DNA from: an uncultured Holophagales bacterium
Lineage (GTDB): Bacteria; Acidobacteriota; Thermoanaerobaculia; Multivoradales; UBA5704
Assembly: GCA_963842525.1 (NCBI GenBank)
Contig: CAWJGT010000011.1
Coordinates: 1-64,000, forward strand
Direction of reading: 5' to 3'
DNA length: 64,000 nt
Positions 8,941 through 61,058 of this stretch are shown here, piece by piece. The notes below the pieces were generated by a model that did not search any database, was not told the DNA's origin, and saw only the letters and a program-made list of their open reading frames with translations. The position numbers and the translations under genes were made by a program. Every line of letters starts with the position of its first letter. Position 1 is the first letter of the stretch.

Positions 8941-9138
8941 CTAGCCCGGCGATTCATCGCCGGGCGGGTCCTGGGGCCGCCCATGGATCACGCGCCAGGG
9001 AAACGCCACAGCCGCTCCCACCAGCAGCAGGTGGATCGCCCTGCCCGCGGCATAGCCGGCGAAGAGCAGGCCCATCCAGGCGGAGACCAGGAGCATGGCC
9101 AGAACGCCTCGCGCGAGGGGGGAGCGCATCGTCGCCAA
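8941..9138 (-). CDS. Small membrane protein (2 TM)
   Basis: Two hydrophobic stretches in 65 aa. Confidence 0.5.
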   Translation of the reverse strand: MATMRSPLARGVLAMLLVSAWMGLLFAGYAAGRAIHLLLVGAAVAFPWRVIHGRPQDPPGDESPG

Positions 9139-9194
9139 GCTATCACAGCAGGATGGGATTGGCCGACGCTCCCCTACGTTATCCTTTTCGCGCC

Positions 9195-9906
9195 ATGATC
9201 GAAGCCGTCACCTTCGACGTCACGGGAACCCTGATCCACTCGCCGCACCTGGGCGCTCTCTATGCCGAGGTGTTGGGCCGCCACGGCATCGTGGTGGACC
9301 CGCGCGAAGCCGGCCGACTGGTGCGGGAGGTCTGGCAGGAGCTGGCCTGCCGCGCCGAGCCCGGGCACGACCGCTTCTCCTCGCATCCGGAGGGGCCGCG
9401 CGGGTGGTGGAAGCGGTTCCTCGAGCGCTTCTGCGAGCACCTGGAGGCGCCGCCGCCCTCGCCTTTCGCCGCTGCGGGAGCTCTTCCACCGCTTCGGCTC
9501 GGCCGAGGCCTGGGAGGTCTACCCCGAGGTGCCCGGGGCCCTCGCGGCGCTGCGGCGCGCCGGGCTCCAACTCGGCGTGATCAGCAATTGGGACCCGCGC
9601 CTCCCCGACCTGCTGGAGGACCTCGGGCTCGCCGGCTACTTCGACGTCGTCGTCTACTCCTCGGCGGCGGGCGTCGAGAAGCCCGACCGGCGGATCTTCC
9701 TCCAGGCCCTGACCCGGCTGCGTGTATCCCCCGGAGCGGCCCTCCACGTAGGGGACAGCCGGCTGGAGGACGCCGAGGGCGCCATGGCGGCGGGGTTGGG
9801 GGCGCTGTGGCTCGACCGCCGCAAGGGCACCGGCGACCTGCGCGACCTGTCGCCCCTGCCGGCAATGGTGGCGGCCGGCGCGGTCGCGAGCCGTCCGCGT
9901 TTGTGA
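9195..9906 (+). CDS. HAD-superfamily hydrolase (frameshift near 9470)
   Basis: Motif I FDVTGTL, motif II VISNWD, EKPD, motif IV HVGDSRLED. Confidence 0.88.
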
Positions 9907-9924
9907 TAAGATTTTCTCAGGTTC

Positions 9925-10416
9925 ATGAAGATCTCTACCAAAGGCGAGTACGGCATCCGTGCGATGCTCTGCATCGCGATGCACGGCGACCAGGGTCCGG
10001 TCACCAGCCACCAGATCGCGACGCGCCAAGGCATCCCGGAGCCCTATCTGCGGCAGATCCTGGCCGTGCTGTCGAAAGAAGGGCTGGTCCGCGCCAATCG
10101 CGGCCCGCAGGGAGGCCACATCCTCGGCCGTCCGGCCTCCGCGATCAGCCTGCGCCAGATCCTGGTGCCCCTGGAGGGCCGGACCACGGCGATCGACGAC
10201 ATCCTCGCCCTGCCGTGTACCATCGAGGTCGGCACCGAGCACTGCGTCATCCGCGAGGTCTTCCTGGAGATCAAGGAAGCCGTGGAGCGCATCCTCTCCA
10301 GGACCACCCTGGCCGACGTCGTCGACCGCCAGCGCGAGATCCTGGACCACCACATCTCCGTGCCGCTCGACCTCCCCACCGGCCCGCCCTCACGGCTGCC
10401 GATCCTGCGGGATTGA
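9925..10416 (+). CDS. Rrf2 family transcriptional regulator
   Basis: MKISTKGEYGIRAM, IPEPYLRQIL, RGPQGG. Confidence 0.92.
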   Translation: MKISTKGEYGIRAMLCIAMHGDQGPVTSHQIATRQGIPEPYLRQILAVLSKEGLVRANRGPQGGHILGRPASAISLRQILVPLEGRTTAIDDILALPCTIEVGTEHCVIREVFLEIKEAVERILSRTTLADVVDRQREILDHHISVPLDLPTGPPSRLPILRD

Positions 10417-10443
10417 CCGGATCTGTTGCCCTGGACGGGCACT

Positions 10444-10466
10444 CTGTCATACACTCTGTATGACAG
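10444..10466. promoter_or_regulatory. Putative TA operator (10-bp perfect inverted repeat)
   Basis: CTGTCATACA-ctc-TGTATGACAG immediately upstream of the antitoxin RBS. Confidence 0.65.
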
Positions 10467-10475
10467 GAGACCGAG

Positions 10476-10736
10476 ATGGCCGTTCGGACCGTGCGCCTGG
10501 ATGAGGACAGCGAGAAAATCCTGCGACAGCTCGTGGAAGAGTCGGGCGAATCGATCTCTACCGTGCTGAAGCAGGGCTTGTTGGCCCTGCAGGATCGCTC
10601 CTCAGGGGCTTCCCGGAGCACGGCGTACGAAATCTATGAAGAGCTCGACCTCGGGCCTGGCGAGTATGCGGTCGCCCCCTCGACGGAAAGCCGGCGCGGC
10701 GTCCAGGAGGCGATCCGCAGGAAGCTCGCCCGGTGA
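10476..10736 (+). CDS. RHH-type antitoxin (VapB-like)
   Basis: RTVRLDEDSEKILRQL RHH-like N-terminus; overlaps PIN gene by 4 nt. Confidence 0.75.
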   Translation: MAVRTVRLDEDSEKILRQLVEESGESISTVLKQGLLALQDRSSGASRSTAYEIYEELDLGPGEYAVAPSTESRRGVQEAIRRKLAR

Positions 10737-11146
10737 TTCTGGTCGACACCGGCCCCTTCGTCGCGCTGTTCGACCCGGCGGACGGACAGCATGTGCGGTG
10801 CCGGGCGACGCTCAAGAGCCTCGGCGATCCCCTCTTCACCACCGTTCCCGTTCTCACCGAAACCTTCCACATGCTCTCGCCGGGAAGCCTCGGTTCAGCC
10901 CGGCTGCGCGACTTCATCCGTAAGGGTGGCGTCTCCGTCTGGTTCATGGATCAGGTAGCGGTGGAGCGTGCGTTCGATCTCATGGACCGGTATGCGGACC
11001 ACCCGATGGACCTCGCCGATGCCTCACTCGTCACCGCCGCGGAGTCTCTCGGGATCCGGAAGGTCTTTACTCTGGATCGCGGCGACTTTGTTTCCTACCG
11101 AGTGCTGCGAGGCCATCGGCAGGAAGCGCTCGAGATCCTGCCCTGA
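10733..11146 (+). CDS. vapC: PIN-domain toxin
   Basis: ILVDTGPFVAL, VLTE, MDLADASLV, FTLDRGDF acidic PIN residues. Confidence 0.9.
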   Translation: MILVDTGPFVALFDPADGQHVRCRATLKSLGDPLFTTVPVLTETFHMLSPGSLGSARLRDFIRKGGVSVWFMDQVAVERAFDLMDRYADHPMDLADASLVTAAESLGIRKVFTLDRGDFVSYRVLRGHRQEALEILP

Positions 11147-11351
11147 CGGGGGTCTTCCGCTATAGCTCGTCCTGGATCGATCGCTTCGTCTGAAACGCAT
11201 CCAGGGTTACCCGGCCGTCCTGAGCTTCGCGCGAGCAGGGAGCGGCTCCTCGGGGGCCCAGACCGGGCCGCTCCCCGTCTACGCGTACATCGATTTTCAA
11301 AGAGCCCTGCTTCCGACAGCGACTATGGAAGAAGTCGTCATCGATGCAGTG

Positions 11352-11381
11352 ATGCTATCTGGGATACAATAAGCCTGTCAA
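11352..11381 (-). promoter_or_regulatory. Putative sigma70 promoter, followed by a boxA-like motif (11294-11305) and a hairpin (11238-11275)
   Basis: Minus strand TTGACA-18 nt-TAGCAT; then GCTCTTTGAAAA; then GGGAGCGGC...GCCGCTCCC stem. Confidence 0.45.
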
Positions 11382-11404
11382 GGCATCCGCGGCGGTCCGA
11401 AGAT

Positions 11405-11712
11405 TCGGTCGATCCAGAGTCATCTGATAAGCGTACGGAGTGATCTGCATCGATCCAGACCCACCCTGGACTAATATCGGGTCATGCTGGATGGGTTCAG
11501 AATGACGTGGATCGATCCCGCGTCACCCGAAACGCATCCAGAGTCACCTACTACGCGTACAGGTCATTCTGGATCGATGTCAGGTCACGCTGGATGCGTA
11601 CAGAGCGCCCTGGATCGATCTCGCGTCGCCCGAAACGCATCCAGGGTGACCCGCTACGCGTATAGGTCGTCCTGGATCGATGTCAGGCCATGCTGGAGGC
11701 GTACAGATGACC
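11405..11712. repeat. Degenerate tandem repeat, ~20-21-bp subunits in a 103-bp higher-order period; related copy at 11170-11212
   Basis: TGGA-anchored units at 11467/11570/11673, 11488/11591/11694 and 11508/11611. Confidence 0.75.
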
Positions 11713-11784
11713 TAGTTCCGGGCCGCTAAGAGGCGGCAGCCGTGGGTGGGCTTTTTACCTTCCGGGGTGAAGGCCGAAACCTAT

Positions 11785-11988
11785 TCAGGCAGCCAGCCGG
11801 ACCAGCTCCTGGCGGTGGCTCGTCAGCTCGAAGGAAATCGCACCAAGCCGTGAGGGGAGGAACTCATTGCCTCCAGCAGTTCCGGGATCATGATCCGAAG
11901 CTTCTCGGCGAGCACCTCGACAGTCGGCGCCTCGGTCGCCAATCCAGGAACATCGTCGCTGGTGGCAACCCAGACTTCGGCCTCATGG
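11785..11988 (-). pseudogene. 5'-truncated paralogue of the DUF1902/HicB-like gene at 7805-8047
   Basis: Long near-identical blocks (agccagccggaccagctcctggcg, cgtcagctcgaaggaaatcgc, ccgggatcatgatccg); start lost at the island edge. Confidence 0.8.
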
Positions 11989-12368
11989 GTAGGTCATTTT
12001 TACTGGTATTGGACAGTACGCCTACAGGGGGTATGCCTTCACGCTTGGCTTCCCCGTCGCCGGCTTCATCACCCCGCTTGGGGCGAGGCGAGTCGCTGCG
12101 CCGGCCTAAGACGCGCAATCTGGGCCGAAATGTCTCCGAGACTGCGGTCCTCACCTTTGCCGCTCTTCCATGCTCTCCAGCGGGCCAGACCTGTGCTACA
12201 GTTCTATAGATTCTGGTCGCTAGGTACCAGGACCAGTGTTCGCAGTTCCTGCGAACAGGGATCTGCGTTTGGACGAGAGCGAGGAATTCTCGCGGCAAGA
12301 ACGGACAGCTGGCCAACAGCTATTGCGTATTTCAGATAAACAGGATATCTGCATTCAGGGGATCAGTC

Positions 12369-12821
12369 ATGCCAATTACCCCTTCTAAGACGACCCACGA
12401 TTCCTTTGCTCCTCTAGCCTGGAATGCAACTGTCGTTGTTGTTGCGCTGGAGAAACTGAGGCGCAGCAAGCCTCTCGGCAGAAAAGAGGTTGATGCCATG
12501 GCTGCCGTAGCCAAACAACTTGACCTCCTTTCAGAGGCAAGCCAGATCAGACTTTCGGAAGAATTTGAGGGAGAGTCTGACTCTCTGCCTCCGTATCTAC
12601 AGGAAAGCTTTTTTACTCTGGTTGCGATCGGTTCTACGGGCGGCAACTTTTCGAAGCTACCGGAGTTGGGTCAAGCTGGCAAGGAGCTCTCGCTGATCTG
12701 CGAGAACCTAAACGCGGGGCAGGGATTTACTAATCCTGAAGTGCTTACACGTGTTAAAGAGGTCTGCGTTAGACTTGTGGAACACTTAAACGACCAGCGC
12801 CCCGCGATGGTTGTCAGATGA
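12369..12821 (+). CDS. Hypothetical helical protein, first gene of the lower-GC operon
   Basis: 150-aa ORF with atypical AT-richer codon usage; closely spaced to next gene. Confidence 0.7.
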   Translation: MPITPSKTTHDSFAPLAWNATVVVVALEKLRRSKPLGRKEVDAMAAVAKQLDLLSEASQIRLSEEFEGESDSLPPYLQESFFTLVAIGSTGGNFSKLPELGQAGKELSLICENLNAGQGFTNPEVLTRVKEVCVRLVEHLNDQRPAMVVR

Positions 12822-13956
12822 GGTAAACGGCATGCCTAATGCGTGGCAGATTAACTGCCTTCGGGCGAGGATGCGCTCTCTCGAGGCTGAGATCAGGAGG
12901 GTGGCGGAAAAGGATCATCCCTACCCAGAGCCCGATGTAATATATAACGCCCTTGTCTCGGTTGTCCGATCGCGGATTGACTTGTTTGAGGAAGCTCTCG
13001 ATCTGTTTTTGGGCAGCGAGGAATACGAAAGAGATCTTCAGGCTACGTTCGGTACCGTTGCAAGAGACTTGCAGCGGGTTGCAGAGGAATTCAGTCTTGC
13101 AGACCGCGTAGATAGCGCTCGCATACCCTTTGAACTCCTGAGGGCCTTGTCGTGGGCCGCCAATATACTTCTGGACGAAAATTGTAGAACAGTTGTACGC
13201 CTTGACACGACATACACCTACACAATTTCTTCTTGCCGGCAGCGGTTCGAAGGTCTCGGGTGGACGGACCACTGGGACGCGTCGGTAAATACAGACCGTT
13301 TTACAGTACTGGTATTGGGATTCCCGTCCTCAGATGCCAACTCCATCCTTCTTCATGCACTCGCTGCGCACGAATTTGGCCATCGGTTTATTCCTAGATA
13401 CAAGTCTAGCCTCTTGGCCCTCAGAGACCGGCTTGCGCAAGATGTAAAGGGTGAATATGGAGAGCAGCTAAAAGATTACCTCTTGGATAACGTTGTGAAA
13501 CGGGAGGGTGTGGCCAGAGGAGATGCCTATGAAGAAAGCAGGAAATTGGTTGAGGCACGCCTCCTCAAGCTCGGAGAATATTGGTTAAGCGAGATTCTTT
13601 CTGATCTAGTTGCGGCGAGGCTTGTTGGCCCGGCGTTCTTGCCGGCTCTTGACCGAATACTCTTGGGCCTCGGCAGGCCGAGTCCGACCCACCCTCCAGG
13701 GCACCTTCGGAAACATCTTGTTCGGGAGTACTTGGGTAAGCTTTTTCCCGAATTGGTTGAGGACTCGATCTGGATGCCATTTTTTTCCCAGCACGAGGAC
13801 CTTGCCTTGTCTCGTGCTACTGATGAACAGGGGCAGGGAGACGCCTGGCAGCCTCTTTATCAAGTCGGGGAGAGAATGTGCCGCCTAGGCCTAGAGCCGA
13901 TATCCAGCATCCTGGAAACATGCCCGTGCACGTTCGAGAAAGTTCAACAGTATGCT

Positions 13957-15736
13957 CTAGCGAAGCCTGCGGCCTCAAACCGACGAGGGGAGAGAGTGTC
14001 GGAGAGTGATGAGGCAGTATCGGCTTGAGACGAGGAGATATCGCAGGTAAGATACCCCTATGGCGAGCATAGCGGAGATCCTGGAAGGACACGTAACCCT
14101 GGAGGTGGAGTGCGTTGATCGGCTGTACCTGAACGGGTATATCCCGAGTCTGGCGACTCCTGGGGGGCTGGTGGTTTTCTTGCGTGAGCACCTGGGCAAG
14201 CCCATCCCATCGCCAGCGATCCTGGGCCAACTCACATCGAGCTTTCGGAAAAGGGTAGAAGCGTTTGCTGCGGAGAACGAAATCCCGTGGATCAAGTTTG
14301 AGCCTGGGGAGAGGAAGGACGACCGAGCGAATCAGATGCGCCGAGAGCGCAACGTTCGGGGGGAGGTGGTCTTCATCGGGGTGGCTCAGGAGAAGGCCAA
14401 GGCCTTTTCGGGCAAGCAGACCAAGGAGGAGGGAGCAGGGCGGTTCGAGTACACGCGGGACAAGACGGTATACGTGAACCACTACTACTTCTATGTTGAT
14501 GACGAAGAATTCGGTCCGGCATTCGTGAAGGTGTGCAGCTATGCGCCCTGGGCTTTGAAGGTATGCCTCAACGGACATGAGTGGGCCAAACGCCAGTTGG
14601 ACAAACGGGGGATTGCCTACACGGCCCTGGACAACGGATTTCTCGAGTGTGGCGATCCGCAGGCCCTGCAGGAGATTTGTAACTCCCTGGGAGCGGAGCA
14701 GATCGAGGCCTTTCTGGCGCGCTGGCTGGAGCGGCTGCCGATGCCCTTGACGAGCGAAGATCGGGCGGCGGGATACGACTGGAAGCTGTCGATCTGGCAG
14801 ATGGAGGTCAGCCTGACGCAGGTCTTCGATCGGCCGGTTCGGGGTCGAGAATTTTTCGAGGAGGTGATGCGGGACAACCTCGATTTGGGTCGTCCCGACC
14901 GTCTGCAGTTGGTCTTTGATCGACGGATCCTGGCGAGCACACCAGGGCAATTCCGGACCCGGGTGATCCAGGATGGTGTGTTGCCGAGCCTGCATATCGA
15001 ATACAAGAATTTCGATCTGAAGCAGTACTTCAAAGAGGGCCGCGCCCTGCGCACGGAAGGAACGTTCCGCAACCCGAAGGATTTCAACGTCAACAAGGGG
15101 CTTTCGAACTTCGCCTATCTGGAGCAGATAGGACGCCAGATCAACCGGCGGCTTCTGGAGGTCGAGCGGGTGAGCCAGAACTGTGGGCTCTCCGCCGATG
15201 GCATCCAACGCGTGGTGCAGCCTACCGTCAGCGAGGACGGTCAAAAAGCGCCGGGGCTTCGGTTCGGCGATCCGCGGGTCATGGCTTTGATGCTGACCCT
15301 CAACCTGTTCATCCATCTGATCAACGGTTTCCGCAATCGGGATCTCCGCGAGGCAGTCAGCGACCTGTTGGGACGGGACCATCCATATACCGCGACCCAA
15401 GCGACCTATGACATCAGACGCCTCTGCCGCAAGGGTCTGCTCTACCGTCGTCCCGGGACCCATCGCTACGTGGTCACGCCCTACGGTTGGAAGATCGCCA
15501 GGCTCTACGCTCGTCTGGAAGCTCGCATCTTCCGGCCGGCCCTTACAGTTGTGGAAGGAGAACACGTCGCGGATCCTCTCCCCAAGCTCTCACGAGCTCT
15601 AGCGAAAGTTGATCACGAGCTGGACACTCTTATCTTCTCGGCATTCCCTTCCATGAAGGAGAAGGCTGCATAGGGGAGAAAAGGTATCAAAAAACGTGTC
15701 TCTTTTGTCTAGAAGTCGGTCTGATTAGACGACTAG
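13957..15736 (+). mobile_element. IS-like element bounded by CTAG at both ends, unassigned family
   Basis: CTAG at 13957-60 and 15733-36; cleanly interrupts a gene; identical left end at 61058; right-end hairpin; subterminal TCARACCGAC inverted motif. Confidence 0.9.
14060..15673 (+). CDS. Putative transposase of the CTAG element (Rep_trans/gpII-like core plus C-terminal winged helix, inferred)
   Basis: Only long ORF in the element; WQMEVSLTQ, LKQYFK, ALRTE motifs; wHTH-like GFRNRDLR...YDIRRL..KGLLYR..GTHRYVVT. Confidence 0.7.
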   Translation: MASIAEILEGHVTLEVECVDRLYLNGYIPSLATPGGLVVFLREHLGKPIPSPAILGQLTSSFRKRVEAFAAENEIPWIKFEPGERKDDRANQMRRERNVRGEVVFIGVAQEKAKAFSGKQTKEEGAGRFEYTRDKTVYVNHYYFYVDDEEFGPAFVKVCSYAPWALKVCLNGHEWAKRQLDKRGIAYTALDNGFLECGDPQALQEICNSLGAEQIEAFLARWLERLPMPLTSEDRAAGYDWKLSIWQMEVSLTQVFDRPVRGREFFEEVMRDNLDLGRPDRLQLVFDRRILASTPGQFRTRVIQDGVLPSLHIEYKNFDLKQYFKEGRALRTEGTFRNPKDFNVNKGLSNFAYLEQIGRQINRRLLEVERVSQNCGLSADGIQRVVQPTVSEDGQKAPGLRFGDPRVMALMLTLNLFIHLINGFRNRDLREAVSDLLGRDHPYTATQATYDIRRLCRKGLLYRRPGTHRYVVTPYGWKIARLYARLEARIFRPALTVVEGEHVADPLPKLSRALAKVDHELDTLIFSAFPSMKEKAA

Positions 15737-16035
15737 TGGTCGAAAAGATGGAAGAGTGCATTGATAACCTGGCACCGCCGAGTGTTGCCTTGAGCTTGAG
15801 CGGCCACGACGACGAGGTATTTAATTTCTGGTTGTTGATGTATACTGCGTGGCACTTTCGATTGGACGCAGTGCGCTTCGCAGGTTTTGCCGAGCGGCAT
15901 GGGTGGGAAGGAGACCTTGGGAAGGCGGAAGAAGTGTTGGGAAACCTCCTCTTGCAGGCATTGCAAGCCTTAGAGCTTAGATATCAATGGGAGAGGCGCA
16001 AGAACGGGGAGCGAGTAGCGTGAAGGAGGACAGCT

Positions 16036-16638
16036 ATGTCGATCAGTCGAGAAGAATTGCTTCGCCGAATTATCGAAGAGGAAAATTGGAGCCGAAGGCT
16101 TATTGTTGAGCCTTTTTTTGTGGGTCGGTCTGCCCCGGTGGCATCGGCGTCTCTGGATTTCCATCTTGGCAACAGATTCACGATTCTTCGTAGTCGCCGC
16201 GCAGCTCAGCACGATCCTCTCAGCGAAGATCCGCGGAAGGATGTTGCCTTCAGCGAGATTTTTATTCCCATGGGGCAGGCATTGTCTTTACATCCAGGGC
16301 AGATAGTCTTGGGAACGACGCTGGAGTGGTTTAAGTTTCCAAGCGATCTAATGGCCTATGTGATAGGTAGGTCGATCTGGGGGCGCAGAGGTTTGCTCAT
16401 AGTAACGGCGCAAGCTGTGCACCCGGGTTCATCGGGGACAGTTACGCTGGAAATGTCCAATCTCGGTGAGGTTAGCTTGCGGCTCAAGCCAGGGGTCGCC
16501 ATCGGTCAGCTTTTCTTTCATCAGGTAGAATCAACGGTTCGATTGGATGAAAGAAAGTCCACGTTTTCTGGCGCATTCCGGCCTATTCTCGGGAAATACT
16601 CTAAATCGGAATCTGAAGACTTGTTCCTCAGCCTGTAG
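16036..16638 (+). CDS. dcd: dCTP deaminase (trimeric dUTPase fold), divergent
   Basis: ASLDFHLG, LHPGQIVLGTTLE, GRSIWGRRGL, HPGSSGTVTLEMSNLG, GQLFF; RBS AAGGAGG. Confidence 0.88.
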   Translation: MSISREELLRRIIEEENWSRRLIVEPFFVGRSAPVASASLDFHLGNRFTILRSRRAAQHDPLSEDPRKDVAFSEIFIPMGQALSLHPGQIVLGTTLEWFKFPSDLMAYVIGRSIWGRRGLLIVTAQAVHPGSSGTVTLEMSNLGEVSLRLKPGVAIGQLFFHQVESTVRLDERKSTFSGAFRPILGKYSKSESEDLFLSL

Positions 16639-17200
16639 ACGCGTTCCTTCTATGTATGACAAATGTCTCGGCAAGGACAATATTTGTCCCTTCATACTTG
16701 ATGTATCCAGACCTGCTTAGGGAGTGAAGCGCGATCTCGAATCCCTCGCCGGATAGTTCTTGAAGTTGTTGAAGCTTGGTCGCCTCCTCAAAGAAGAGGG
16801 ACTTCGCTTTTTCGCGATCCATAGAATGGTTGCGGGACCGATAGACAAGCCAAAAGAGAAGACCCTCTGCAGGCGTAGCTTGTTGCTTGGCGTCTGCCAA
16901 GGCAAGGGCGCAAGAGAGAACAGCGCTTGCAACGAGAAAACCAGTGTTGCTTCCTGCAATGCCGGTCACGAGCGATAGTAAGATCAGTCCTGCCGCGCGG
17001 GGTTTGTAGTGGATGACTTCGGGTGAGGCATTGTTTTTTTTCGTGATATAGGTTAGCTGACCGCTCTCGAACGTAGGAATAGTTATTGCCTCATTCACTA
17101 ACTGGTTGGCGCATTGACTCGCTTCATCGAGAGATAAAGAGGGTGTGCCCGGAAGACCTTGAAGTGCGAGGGAAATGGTTTCGGCGATCGTTTTTTTCAT
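16628..17200 (-). CDS. Hypothetical protein with central hydrophobic hairpin and possible C-terminal winged helix
   Basis: 190-aa AT-richer ORF convergent with dcd. Confidence 0.6.
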   Translation of the reverse strand: MKKTIAETISLALQGLPGTPSLSLDEASQCANQLVNEAITIPTFESGQLTYITKKNNASPEVIHYKPRAAGLILLSLVTGIAGSNTGFLVASAVLSCALALADAKQQATPAEGLLFWLVYRSRNHSMDREKAKSLFFEEATKLQQLQELSGEGFEIALHSLSRSGYIKYEGTNIVLAETFVIHRRNASTG

Positions 17201-17929
17201 GTCGGCCTCTTAGGCTTGTAATGGTTCAGTTTGTCGCGGCCAATAGGGCTGTGGGATGCGCACCGGTACGCTTCAGAACTCAGGAAAGACAGGGTTCCCT
17301 TGCAGATGCGGAAATCGAGACTCTCTCTCGATGCTCACGCCGCAAGGATAGCATTTTCAGAGGTGCAAGAGTACCCTGCCCTGTGCCCAGAATGTGTCCG
17401 AAAGGTGTCAAGCCGGCCCGAGGAAGCACCCGGAAATAGTGTCTCGCGTTGGCCCGGATCTCGCCGACGTGCAGCGCTGTTCCTCGTCGGGCCGCACGCA
17501 CTGACTGTGCTCCGCCTTAGCTCCTGGGAGATGCTGGGGTCGAGGCAGTGCTCTCCTCCATCAGGTTTCCGGCACCCTCCGGTCTATTGGCTTGGCGATC
17601 GGCACGTGCTTCTTCTCACATCCTCATGAGCGAGAGTGAGGGTATCCAGGATATCCGGAAGCCCTACAGCGGATGCTGCTCGTCGCCGCCGTTCTTCGTC
17701 GAGCAGCAAGCCCAGACGCGCGATAGCGCTATCGGTCGGAAGGCGGCCCGGGCCGAGGCCCGCAGCGCTAGGTGAAACCTAGCACTCACTTACCGAATGT
17801 TGGTGGAGTCCCGGTTTCGGGCAAACCCGAGGCGTGGGGTCGCGGGAGCCTTTCCGCTGGCGACGATCGACAAGGAGGGCAGGGTGTGGGAGGCTGGTCA
17901 TCAGCTCGTAGTGCGGGCGCTGAAGAAGC

Positions 17930-18335
17930 TCAAGATCGCTGCCCGACCAGCAGCTCGACCTCCGGCAGAGCGGCCAGATCTCGCGCGGCCTTGGCCAGCG
18001 GCCGGTGGAACGTAGCGAACCGTTCTGTTCCGCGGCTGGAGCTCAGGCGCAGAGCATCAGCGAAGTCGAGCCCCCGGGTGCGGTCTAGGGCGAGGAAGAC
18101 GGCGTCCGGGTCTTCGACGTCATGTTGCGGTAGCCGAGGAGCCGGCGGAAGATCTCCAGGATGGTCTCTCGGGAGAGCTCATAGCTATAGCGGAGAACCC
18201 ACTCCGTCTCCAAGAGGGCAGTCTTGCAGACCCAGAGATCGTCGGTCCTCATCGTCTCCAGCGCCACGGCGGGCTGGTCAGGGTCATCCGCCGTGAACAC
18301 CCGGACGAGGACGTTTGGTGTTCGAACGAGATCAC
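17930..18335 (-). pseudogene. vapC: PIN-domain toxin (VapC), frameshifted
   Basis: NVLVRVFTADDPDQ, LLETEWVLRYSY, GLDFADAL, FATF across frames. Confidence 0.75.
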
Positions 18336-18618
18336 CGGCTCTCCCGGGCTCCTCGTGCGATTGCGGCCTCCATTTCCTCCAGGGTCTTTGCGGGCCCTCG
18401 ATAGCCGACGCAACCGACGAGGTCTTCCAGGGTGGTCTCGGAAGCCTTCGGGCCGAACGCAGCAGGATCCGGTCCTCCTCATCCTCCAAAACGAGCTCGA
18501 CCCTTTCGCTCCATCCATGGCGCAGCCGGACCTCTTTGGGTACCACAAGCTGACCCTTGGTCGAGAGCCGGACCAAATACGTCCGGTCGGAAGGCGGACT
18601 GGTGCCCCGTTCGCTCAT
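18332..18618 (-). CDS. AbrB/MazE/SpoVT family antitoxin (frameshift near 18440)
   Basis: VRLSTKGQLVVPKEVR; C-terminal KTLEEMEAAIARGA in adjacent frame. Confidence 0.8.
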
Positions 18619-18765
18619 AGCTGGCTTCTCTCCCGGTAGAGCCTCCGGTAAGACAGTCTAGTACTCTTGCGCCGTGCCAGGCGGCGGTCTCGGCAGGAGT
18701 TGGTGTCTTTGGGCGATGAAATTTCGCTTGCGCTGGCGTGGTACTACTTGTTGCGGAGGAGGCCT

Positions 18766-19032
18766 ATGGACGTTCTGCTTCAGGTTCCGGACGACATCGT
18801 CGAGAGGCTCCAAGTCCGTTTGGAGGATCTCCCGCGTCATGCTCTGGAGTCTCTCGCTGCTGATTTCTATCGTGCAAGGCTGCTGACCTCCGCAGAGGTC
18901 CAGCGGATGCTCGGCTTCCAGACCCGATGGCAGACTGACGCGTTCCTCAAGGGGAAAGAGGCTTACTTGCGCTACTCCGCGGCAGATCTCGAACGGGATA
19001 TCGAGACATTCCGCAAGCTTTCCGGCCGGTGA
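18766..19032 (+). CDS. UPF0175 family antitoxin
   Basis: ALESLAADFYRARLLTSAEVQRMLGF..RW..DAFLK; overlaps DUF3368 gene. Confidence 0.8.
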   Translation: MDVLLQVPDDIVERLQVRLEDLPRHALESLAADFYRARLLTSAEVQRMLGFQTRWQTDAFLKGKEAYLRYSAADLERDIETFRKLSGR

Positions 19033-19506
19033 GGGCCGTCTCCGATACCTCTCCGCTTTCGTATCTGCTCCTGATCGGGGAGAGCGAGTTGCTCCCTGTT
19101 CTGTATGACCGGATCTTCATTCCAAGGGCCGTCGCGACGGAGCTCAAGCACCCAGACGCTCCTCCTGTTGTAAGGGGATGGATGGCGACGCCTCCACCTT
19201 GGTTGGAGATCCACCAAGTCGCTCCAAGGACACCCCGGGATCTGCGCCACCTTCAGCCGGGCGAACGCGAAGCTATGCTCCTGGCGGAAGATCTCGGAGC
19301 GGATCAGGTGATTCTCGAATGACTGGGAGGCGCGACAGGCTGCCGTGAAGCGCGGCTTGGCAGTGACCGGTCTCCTGGGCGTTCTTGATCAAGCCGCGAG
19401 AAGATCGCTCATCGACCTGGTCAGCGTGGTCCAGCGGCTCCGGAAGACCAGCTTCCATGTCGCTCCCTCGCTTCTGAAGGACCTCCTCGACCGGCACGTC
19501 CGTTGA
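19029..19506 (+). CDS. DUF3368 PIN-like toxin (frameshift near 19320)
   Basis: VSDTSPLSYL, IPRAVATEL, LQPGEREAMLLA, then D..ARQAAVKRGLAVTGLLGVL. Confidence 0.82.
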
Positions 19507-19651
19507 CCCCAGCGGGGGGATTGCGGTGGAGAGCGGCCAGGTCCTGACCCGAGCTTGTGACGAGTTGCACAAGCTCCCGGAAGTTGCTATGCTGCGCCGC
19601 GCCGAGGAGAGGTGTTCACCAGGGTGCGGTGGCCCGGCGTTCGAGCCCGCG

Positions 19652-19913
19652 ATGGCCGAGGAGCGGAATACAGACAGGCAGTGGATCCGGCTCTCGGGCC
19701 TCGGGATCGAAGCTCGGGGCGGCGATCGGAGGGCTTACCCTGGCAGGCTACTGGTGGGACCGCCACTTCGGCACCGCGCCGTGGGGGTTCTGGATCGGCC
19801 TCACCATCGGCATGGTCGGCGGAATGTACAACCTGATCCGTCAGGCGCTGAACGCCACCCGCGAAGCCAACCGCGGCAGCCGGACAACGACGAAGCGCGA
19901 CGAGAGGCCATGA
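19652..19913 (+). CDS. AtpZ/AtpI family protein (frameshift near 19710)
   Basis: GYWWDRHFGTAPWGFWIGLTIGMVGGMYNLIR; first gene of atp operon. Confidence 0.8.
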
Positions 19914-20305
19914 CCGACGCCCACACGCCGACCGCAGCGTACCTGCGGTTCGTGGCGTGGGTGCTCGGAGTCGCGGCCCTCGCTGCGGCGGTCGGATACC
20001 TGCCGACCCGCCGCCTGGGAGGACCGGATGCGGTCCCCTCGATGCTCGCCGGGTGCGCCGTGGGTGTGCTCGCCTCGCTGGTGGGAGGCCTTCCGGTGCT
20101 CTGGGGCCGGCACGATCCGACGCCCGCCGAGAGGCTCAACCGGATGCTCTTCGGCCTGGGGCTGCGCTTCGGCGTCGCCGTCGCGCTGGGGCTCGCGGCG
20201 GCCTTCTCGGGCTGGTTCGAGCGCGATCCGCTGCTGCTCTGGGTCGCGATCAGCTACATGGCCCTGCTGGTGGTGGATACGCGGTTTGCTTTGAAGGGTT
20301 CCTGA
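19910..20305 (+). CDS. ATP synthase protein I-like membrane protein
   Basis: 4 TM; position before atpB. Confidence 0.65.
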   Translation: MTDAHTPTAAYLRFVAWVLGVAALAAAVGYLPTRRLGGPDAVPSMLAGCAVGVLASLVGGLPVLWGRHDPTPAERLNRMLFGLGLRFGVAVALGLAAAFSGWFERDPLLLWVAISYMALLVVDTRFALKGS

Positions 20306-60337: not shown

Positions 60338-60454
60338 GGTGTCTTCCTCCTCTTGAAATCAGACTCCCACAGGTCGGAATCCGGGGAGTATACGGTGACC
60401 ACCTGGCAATTTCCGCCGGCCGGGTCGACCGCGACCACGACATGGAGGGGCCTG
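60334..60454 (-). pseudogene. 3' remnant of DUF4258 toxin-like gene
   Basis: GRPLHVVVA...VVTVYSPDSDLWESDFKRRK; 5' part replaced by the element copy. Confidence 0.8.
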
Positions 60455-61058
60455 CCGCCGCCCGATCTTCGCTCGTCAAGGGCATCGGCAGCCGCTCCAG
60501 CCAGCGCGCCAGAAAGGCCTCGATCTGCTCCGCTCCCAGGAGCTACAAATCTCCTGCAGGGCCTGCGGATCGCCACACTCGAGAAATCCGTTGTCCAGGG
60601 CCGTGTAGGCAATCCCCCGTTTGTCCAACTGGCGTTTGGCCCACTCATGTCCGTTGAGGCATACCTTCAAAGCCCAGGGCGCATAGCTGCACACCTTCAC
60701 GAATGCCGGACCGAATTCTTCGTCATCAACATAGAAGTAGTAGTGGTTCACGTATACCGTCTTGCCCCGCGTGTACTCGAACCGCCCTGCTCCCTCCTCC
60801 TTGGTCTGCTTGCCCGAAAAGGCCTTGGCCTTCTCCTGAGCCACCCCGATGAAGACCACCTCCCCCCGAACGTTGCGCTCTCGGCGCATCTGATTCGCTC
60901 GGTCGTCCTTCCTCTCCCCAGGCTCAAACTTGATCCACGGGATTTCGTTCTCCGCAGCAAACGTTTCTACCCTTTTCCGAAAGCTCGATGTGAGTTGGCC
61001 CAGGATCGCTGGCGGACACTCTCTCCCCTCGTCGGTTTGAGGCCGCAGGCTTCGCTAG
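60455..61058 (-). mobile_element. Deleted and truncated second copy of the CTAG element
   Basis: Near-identical to 13957-14000 joined to 14211-14771; begins at CTAG (61055-58) with a different flank. Confidence 0.92.

Follow-up and report, generated by a model that had tools for sequence, protein, structure and literature searches.

Why should an uncultured Holophagales bacterium that already has a housekeeping dCTP deaminase gene carry a second, altered one, placed directly behind a gene for an HExxH protein on an island of foreign base composition? The locus lies in the window, the 64,000 nucleotides (nt) analyzed here, which correspond to positions 1-64,000 of contig CAWJGT010000011.1 (GCA_963842525.1). 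Within it, calls of open reading frames (ORFs) placed three genes, termed A, B, and C herein, on the forward strand inside a low-GC island (coordinates in Table 1). They encode a helical protein, an HExxH protein, and a dCTP deaminase (Dcd) of the dUTPase fold, and the initial annotation of this DNA had proposed the trio as a candidate nucleotide-depletion defence system. Our analysis favors a horizontally acquired, conserved mobile cassette, now probably disabled, that would act as a conflict module in which C is the effector and A and B gate it, a reading to which we assign a probability of roughly 0.5. Stated more broadly, the cassette is probably an undescribed conflict or anti-phage module, and a defence role is plausible. 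The initial proposal gained from the conserved linkage of the HExxH and Dcd genes, the presence of an extra dcd in the host, and the splitting of B by an insertion sequence (IS)-like element; its defence role stays at plausible.

We compared 29 related loci, four from genomes and 25 from metagenomes. A Dcd gene was located directly 3' of B in all 22 loci in which the DNA continued past B (the other seven ended inside B), and approximately 18 of these 22 are independent once four near-duplicate pairs are taken into account. A homologue of A was found upstream of B in 21 of the 29 loci, and homologues of a fourth gene, D, which is convergent with C and overlaps its 3' end by 11 nt, occupied the same position in nine of the 22 C-bearing loci. 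D had gone unnoticed in the initial annotation, and its tail-to-tail overlap with C suggests a regulatory or antisense link. The coupling of B and Dcd extended to gene fusion: all five tested superfamily members of about 700 amino acids (aa) were B-Dcd fusions, and a genome of the host's own class carries a 708-aa fusion ORF (L046). The pairing of HExxH and dcd genes that the initial annotation had seen at a single locus is thus a strict one in every locus that can be judged, with the fusions in addition. Collectively, these gene orders point to a mobile A-B-C cassette of strict arrangement, often accompanied by D, in which B and C appear functionally tied; judged from the loci compared, many soil bacteria share the cassette with its gene order unchanged.

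A relative of the cassette resides on the conjugative plasmid pRetR611c of Rhizobium phaseoli, where a 138-aa gene, a 416-aa B relative, and a dcd form a trio. This B relative matched a profile of 65 distant B members with an hhalign probability of 99.9% (E = 2.6e-33), and the same dcd is present on about ten sister plasmids. A Fic gene lies upstream of the plasmid trio. Directly after it, on the other side (L048:6730-12483), are genes for an S8 serine peptidase, a protein with a trypsin-like peptidase domain, and an AAA ATPase, which may be another conflict-type set. Matches to 'plasmid' dcd genes of Escherichia coli, Salmonella, and Klebsiella were rejected as cassettes, being the ordinary udk-dcd-asmA locus, and a tblastn search with the B-Dcd fusion against plasmids and phages matched in the Dcd part only.

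The island had a GC content of 0.50-0.58 across positions 12000-17500, versus 0.64-0.75 on either side, in a genome of ~70% GC, and a search of 400 further genomes from the host's phylum found no full-length B. Because of this low GC content and this absence from the phylum, the copy in the window is read as horizontally acquired and foreign. The tight spacing, common orientation, AT-richer composition, and toxin-antitoxin-like flanks described at the outset for this locus were all present in the sequence. The same 400 genomes held six distant B relatives, four of them with an adjacent or fused Dcd, one with an HNH_5 nuclease, and one with neither in the DNA examined. At the HNH locus (L043:73-2708, genome G301), a 150-aa ORF and a 381-aa B relative with an HEFGH motif are followed by a 330-aa HNH_5 endonuclease at the position that Dcd holds elsewhere.

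Gene C scored 102.5 bits against PF22769 (cut-off 27) and 104.6 bits against the TIGR02274 equivalog (cut-off 92.8), and its best relatives in the PDB were E. coli Dcd chains (1xs1/2j4h), with E values of 1.7e-21 to 2.3e-21. A GGAGG-type ribosome-binding site lies immediately 5' of the gene. The GRSIWGR and TLE stretches of C align with GRSSLAR and VLE of E. coli Dcd, whose catalytic residues we take to be Ser111, Arg115, and Glu138. The counterparts in C are Ser113, Arg117, and Glu139, while HPG stands in place of DPG and a Ser instead of an aromatic residue follows the PG. Both the profiles and the E. coli alignment bear out the initial description of the third gene as a dUTPase-fold Dcd with GRSxxxR, TLE, and HPG motifs. 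A word-indexed search delineated a C subfamily of 118 clusters with 39-100% identity. Across its 102 full-length members, on which all residue counts below are based, Ser113 and Arg117 were found in every sequence and Glu139 in 101. Because the catalytic residues are this strictly conserved, C looks catalytically competent and is best regarded as an enzyme. It also carries a conserved C-terminal extension (RPI.G.Y....E..L).

Several lines of evidence identified C as an extra copy. In the host genome, contig 9 carries a separate dcd and contig 19 a dut, and orthologues of the contig-9 gene, at 80-93% identity, were present in 27 of 30 relatives, including all 18 of the same family. A housekeeping dcd, for which the initial annotation had suggested a check, therefore exists beside C. 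The cassette dcd was found in none of five same-genus genomes, and four of the 30 relatives had only accessory genes at 35-41% identity. All four Acidobacteriota that carry the cassette likewise have a higher-scoring canonical dcd elsewhere in the genome. In a quick maximum-likelihood tree of 50 rows with a midpoint root, the five host housekeeping Dcds were separated from all B-linked Dcds (Shimodaira-Hasegawa-like approximate likelihood ratio test, SH-aLRT, 96).

B belongs to a large family. Its start was placed at the ATG at 12832, matching the MPxxWQ start of homologues. The narrow family comprised 39 matches in 5.8 billion sequences, none with a Pfam domain. A profile search of 1.84 billion representatives recovered a superfamily of 1,625 proteins at E <= 0.001 and 341 at E <= 1e-10, the former to be read as at least 1,625 representatives at 50% identity. 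The HEFGH (H187, E188, H191), EILSD (E261, D265), and HPP (H294, P295) motifs, previously singled out as a gluzincin-like ligand set, all sit on invariant or near-invariant columns among 33 homologues, the invariant ones taking in HExxH, W..E...D, and HP. The gluzincin pattern of HExxH plus ExxxD was invariant in these 33 close members and in 65 distant ones; in the latter, at 15-25% identity, the invariant residues were H, E, H, E, D, G, P, and R. Because the ligand residues are invariant across these distant members, B is, on conservation, a genuine and unnamed metalloprotein superfamily. The downstream piece of B, separated from the rest by the IS-like element, matched profile positions 374-465, and full-length homologues in 22 loci aligned with it at their C-termini. 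A model of a full-length B homologue (predicted local distance difference test, pLDDT, 87.5; predicted template modelling score, pTM, 0.86) opens with a three-helix bundle at the N-terminus, continues through a three-stranded sheet and the HExxH helix to a long helix bearing the E and D ligands, and ends in a helical C-terminal domain.

A structural link between A and B emerged from a three-chain prediction of B, C, and A of a related locus (L015), with own alignments for each chain and A as the scored partner. The A-B score was 0.76, compared with 0.00 for the best of three controls; the runs had 75% or more of their contacts in common, and the pLDDT of the partner was 79 or higher. Of 80 solved complexes, 58 attained this mark, as did 2 of 110 mismatched pairs, a calibration that is rough for this case, with its own alignments and three chains. 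Confident predicted contacts of A fell on the N-terminal bundle of B (51-84) and on helices 201-216 and 236-248, the latter two of which lead, in the model, into the helix carrying the E and D ligands. On the side of A, residues 9-32 and 130-147 are predicted to meet B residues 51-84 and 236-248 (numbering of L015). Confident A-C contacts were not listed in the model, and we did not use this as evidence on A-C binding. The prediction supports binding of A to B.

These observations can be assembled into a mechanism. In the proposed conflict module, which would act in anti-phage defence or abortive infection or in an addiction-like manner, C would be the effector, converting dCTP to dUTP and thereby starving DNA synthesis of dCTP while flooding it with dUTP. 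A complex of A and B would hold C silent until a trigger arrives, and release would most simply proceed through proteolysis, with B cutting either A or the conserved tail at the C-terminus of C. The HNH nuclease in the Dcd position amounts to an effector-swap pattern, and this single case hints that the A-B pair may drive alternative effectors. Defence genes beside some copies emerged from a scan of 105 neighbouring ORFs from 17 loci, in which PADLOC matches at E <= 1e-5 included JetD (6e-127), JetC, DrmD, a type II methyltransferase, PDC-M45A/B/C, and kinases resembling PD-T4-6 and mad6. At one locus (L022), a methyltransferase and a 946-aa kinase of this mad6/PD-T4-6-like type directly follow the cassette, and at another (L012) a 770-aa kinase-HD protein comes after it and DUF488 and DuOB genes come before it.

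Addiction is also conceivable outside any defence role: ungated C would poison the cell by depleting dCTP and raising dUTP to excess, A and/or B would neutralize it, and the cassette would serve as a selfish stabilizer of islands and plasmids. The window copy sits between toxin-antitoxin genes, a gene resembling the ribbon-helix-helix (RHH) type adjoins the cassette at L015, and both the occurrence on a conjugative plasmid and the patchy distribution are as expected under horizontal transfer. The tight coupling of the genes and the predicted binding of A to B would suit such a module as well. Yet, at about 2.4 kb and with three proteins, one of them a 471-aa protein with a conserved metal site, the cassette is far more complex than typical type II pairs; the predicted contact of A is with B; and defence systems lie beside some copies. 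The two roles are compatible with each other. We regard a pure toxin-antitoxin function as unlikely.

Several results weigh against the gated-effector reading, the first of which concerns the active site of C. The Asp of the DPG motif (position 129) was found in none of the 102 cassette Dcds, being replaced by His in 63, Gln in 36, and Arg in two, with a gap in one, whereas the host housekeeping Dcd has Asp. The residue after PG was Ser or Thr in 95 of the 102, compared with Phe in the host housekeeping Dcd. In Dcds linked to distant B relatives, the Asp position held Gln, Ala, Gln, Ala, Asn, Asp, and Ala, and the aromatic residue after PG was retained. In Dcds and dUTPases this Asp contacts the 3'-OH of the sugar, and in dUTPases it is the general base. 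Its loss suggests a retuned pocket and, since it is absent in all 102 cassette Dcds, the substrate or product of C may differ from that of a normal Dcd. In addition, E. coli Dcd fell among the B-linked Dcds on long branches of the tree, the deeper topology of which we do not rely on.

A changed sugar pocket, as suggested by the 102 replacements of Asp and the 95 Ser/Thr residues, would fit a role in regulated nucleotide metabolism, with C as an accessory pyrimidine-pool enzyme acting perhaps on CTP or a modified cytidine nucleotide and B as its maturation or regulatory metalloprotein. The score of C above the dCTP deaminase equivalog threshold and the housekeeping character of several neighbourhoods agree with this. 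However, each of the five carrier genomes examined already has a canonical dcd, the cassette stands out as foreign by its GC content and is missing from close relatives, an IS is tolerated inside it, and the replacement of Dcd by an HNH nuclease in one relative is a better fit to effectors, so that a metabolic role appears doubtful. The same pocket could instead belong to a more elaborate form of the immune reading, a protease-gated effector whose Dcd has been retuned from ordinary dCTP toward a ribo-, 3'-altered, or phage-modified cytidine nucleotide, with A-B as a sensor that can be combined with alternative effectors; we consider this specific version quite improbable.

The second set of opposing results concerns the fold of B. 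The window B had no Pfam match, and a Foldseek search of the PDB with the full-length model returned nothing at E <= 0.001. As VIA searches with the full model gave only generic helical-bundle matches to residues 1-141, the core was folded alone (pLDDT 80.7); this core-only model had no significant structural match in either Foldseek or VIA, and the 65-member profile retrieved only coiled-coil noise from PDB sequences. First in rank for the core in Foldseek was Ste24p, at E = 0.46, and the VIA Z scores for Ste24p (5.7), BepA (5.2, with 22% identity over 73 residues), and ZMPSTE24 (5.1) are within the range that the tool states as noise. Pfam M48 matched eight of the 65 distant members below threshold (best E = 0.0016) and the window B not at all. 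The nearest named protein-atlas clusters of B were M48 and U49, at a score of 0.79, which is under the atlas's trust level; the Peptidase_U49 lead was followed and not substantiated. On sequence and models, an M48-like nature is thus put forward only as the best lead, and B is described as a metalloprotein of the cytoplasm with an HExxH...E...D pattern, which belongs to an unclassified superfamily and bears a weak likeness to M48 peptidases.

Could B be something other than a protease? As a metal-dependent scaffold, sensor, or small-molecule hydrolase, it would account for the absence of significant matches among peptidase families and solved folds and for its large helical N- and C-terminal domains, which resemble sensor modules, and the Dcd domain could in that case be a nucleotide sensor. 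Speaking against this, HExxH followed by ExxxD is the zinc-ligand pattern of M48-type enzymes and is invariant here, M48 peptidases were the only recurring weak matches, and the strictly conserved catalytic residues of C argue against a sensor Dcd. We rate a non-protease B as very unlikely.

The remaining opposing points concern context and the nature of the scores. The A-B score is a measure of model confidence. No PADLOC-DB v2.0.0 family matched A, either piece of B, or C, and a search of viral contigs with the B profile returned no loci for the narrow family. Other neighbours in the scan were housekeeping or mobile genes (M17 peptidase, AICARFT/IMPCHase of the purH type, HMGL, and IstB). 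Overall, the neighbourhoods are compatible with residence in defence islands, in a mixed picture counted without a background rate. With these points included, we retain the conflict module with C as the effector gated by A-B at the probability given above.

Attack on nucleotide pools is itself an established strategy; a deaminase of this fold, with such partners and an active site altered in this way, is not known from it. The known defensive dCTP deaminase, which we take to be AvcD/DcdV, was contrasted with C in the initial annotation by its zinc-dependent fold. That contrast is correct: the enzyme described by Tal et al. is one chain of 576 aa that joins a kinase-like domain at the N-terminus to a domain of the zinc-dependent cytosine-deaminase fold (bioRxiv 10.1101/2021.04.26.441389). 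The shared elements are the proposed removal of dCTP during infection and the status of an accessory gene near defence genes, whereas the cassette deaminase has the metal-free dUTPase fold and comes with two or three partner proteins. The combination of zinc cytosine-deaminase and kinase-like domains was absent from A, B, and C in Pfam and PADLOC searches. Compared with the housekeeping Dcd of E. coli (1xs1/2j4h), C shares the fold family, passes the same curated thresholds, and keeps the Ser, Arg, and Glu; it differs in its location on a foreign island, the loss of the DPG Asp, its C-terminal extension, and its constant coupling or fusion to an HExxH protein.

M48 peptidases (Ste24/ZMPSTE24, BepA, HtpX) have in common with B the HExxH motif and, ~70 residues later, an E...D pair on a helix. 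B, in contrast, lacks membrane segments and has a three-helix N-terminal bundle and a helical C-terminal domain of ~170 aa, and all scores for this likeness are below significance. Lit, encoded by the e14 element of E. coli and classed as U49 in Pfam, is a phage-exclusion peptidase that acts alone on EF-Tu; its likeness to B is that of an HExxH metalloprotein involved in phage exclusion, with no sequence or fold match, and Lit is not known to work with a deaminase. The literature, searched at title and abstract level, yielded no account of an HExxH protein coupled to a Dcd of the dUTPase fold.

The window copy is most likely non-functional, owing to the IS-like element that splits B. The contig carries a second copy, with 100% identity, of the 1,781 bp at 13956-15736, and the CTAG at each end of the element constitutes a 4-bp target duplication. 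The element also occurred, at 95-99% identity and between unrelated flanks, on contigs of three other metagenome runs from soil, which depart from the window sequence exactly at 13957 and 15736/7. As it stands, the B frame continues into the element and stops at 14028 (ORF 12811-14028). Removal of the element and one CTAG brings 15737-16023 back into frame and yields a B of 376 + 95 = 471 aa, the size at which the initial annotation had arrived for the middle gene; its report of an insertion in the HExxH gene likewise held. Like an insertion sequence, the element is present in identical copies with defined ends, is flanked by a duplicated target site, and has a single long ORF; terminal inverted repeats were not found. 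No contig bridging the empty, uninterrupted site was present among the metagenome contigs examined, and there were no RNA runs among the 15 metagenome runs listed. C and D both retain intact ORFs. Disablement of the cassette copy is the most likely outcome because B loses its C-terminal domain through the insertion and the element comes to lie between C and a promoter upstream of A. A Blastocatellia copy (L014:6001-8030) is also decayed, with B broken up across three or more frames and only 84 aa left of the Dcd ORF; from its sequence, this is a second instance of cassette loss.

The long ORF of the element encodes a 537-aa presumed transposase without a Pfam or NCBIfam match. The host genome holds two full copies and one fragment of this protein, together with three paralogues at 26-27% identity (C7:142143-143579, C22:7263-8699, and C1:158376-159683). 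A third, decayed copy of the element lies in the window at 60450-61027 on the reverse strand, matching residues 46-239 of the 537-aa protein at 90-92% identity. The protein and its paralogues may represent an unclassified transposase family.

Table 1. Features of the cassette, the inserted element, and flanking genes in the window
Feature	Positions	Strand	Evidence
Gene A, 150-aa helical protein	12369-12821	+	ORF; stop 10 nt ahead of the B ATG
Gene B, N-terminal part, 376 codons; three-helix bundle and HExxH core	12832-13960	+	ORF, homologue alignment, models
IS-like element, ~1,776 bp, listed with both flanking CTAG copies	13957-15736	+	Second copy, CTAG ends, metagenome breaks
537-aa element ORF, presumed transposase	14060-15673	+	ORF; no family match
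Gene B, C-terminal part, 95 codons; helical, NLAPPS and FWLLMY..WHFRL motifs	15737-16023	+	Homologue C-termini, profile
Gene C, 200-aa dUTPase-fold dCTP deaminase, intact ORF	16036-16638	+	Profiles, structure alignment
Gene D, 190 aa, accessory, convergent with C	16628-17200	-	Homologues in same position
DUF6290-like antitoxin and PIN-domain toxin pair	10476-11146	+	Pfam
MazE-like gene, 177-aa ORF	18085-18618	-	Pfam 22.9 bits, under cut-off
UPF0175 antitoxin-like gene (18667-19032) and following 97-aa gene	18667-19322	+	Pfam

Neither A nor D could be assigned to a family: A had no match in Pfam, NCBIfam, or PADLOC, and D had none in Pfam and only unnamed nearest clusters in the Atlas. A PADLOC match of D to RmrT (E = 0.016) was taken as chance. 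On the flanks, two of the four toxin-antitoxin Pfam scores were below the curated cut-off. The PIN gene scored 38.7 bits (cut-off 23.6) and its DUF6290-like partner 22.6 bits, below the cut-off of 27; the UPF0175 gene scored 54 bits (cut-off 27.9), and the 97-aa gene after it had no match. In the 177-aa ORF, the N-terminus is MazE/AbrB-like and, by eye, the C-terminal half looks like the final part of a PIN domain; this ORF may be a fused or frameshifted toxin-antitoxin pair. The 1.2-kb gene-poor gap between the PIN gene and gene A contains a repeat array (11160-11710) with a 103-nt unit in 2.2 copies (84% matches) composed of shorter motifs. Within it, CTGGATCGAT occurs at least six times at spacings of 21, 41, and 62 nt, beside ACGCATCCAG(G/A)GT. 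The array could be a set of protein-binding sites or a remnant of the island border. Neither a tRNA gene (positions 1-30000 of the window) nor an Rfam family (9000-20000) marking such a border was found.

For the host, the window copy is a decayed example that adds one more independent occurrence of the cassette and is evidence that its loss is tolerated. For the family, current labels such as 'dCTP deaminase' and 'hypothetical protein' hide the non-housekeeping nature of the cassette dcd, and the systematic loss of an otherwise universal Asp in these Dcds presents a concrete biochemical puzzle. Should the cassette be defensive, nucleotide-pool attack would have been invented at least twice with unrelated deaminase folds, and a large unannotated HExxH family of at least 1,625 proteins would join the sensors or regulators of immunity, with swappable effectors. 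If the version with a retuned effector were true, the cassette would represent a new modular defence family with new nucleotide-targeting chemistry.

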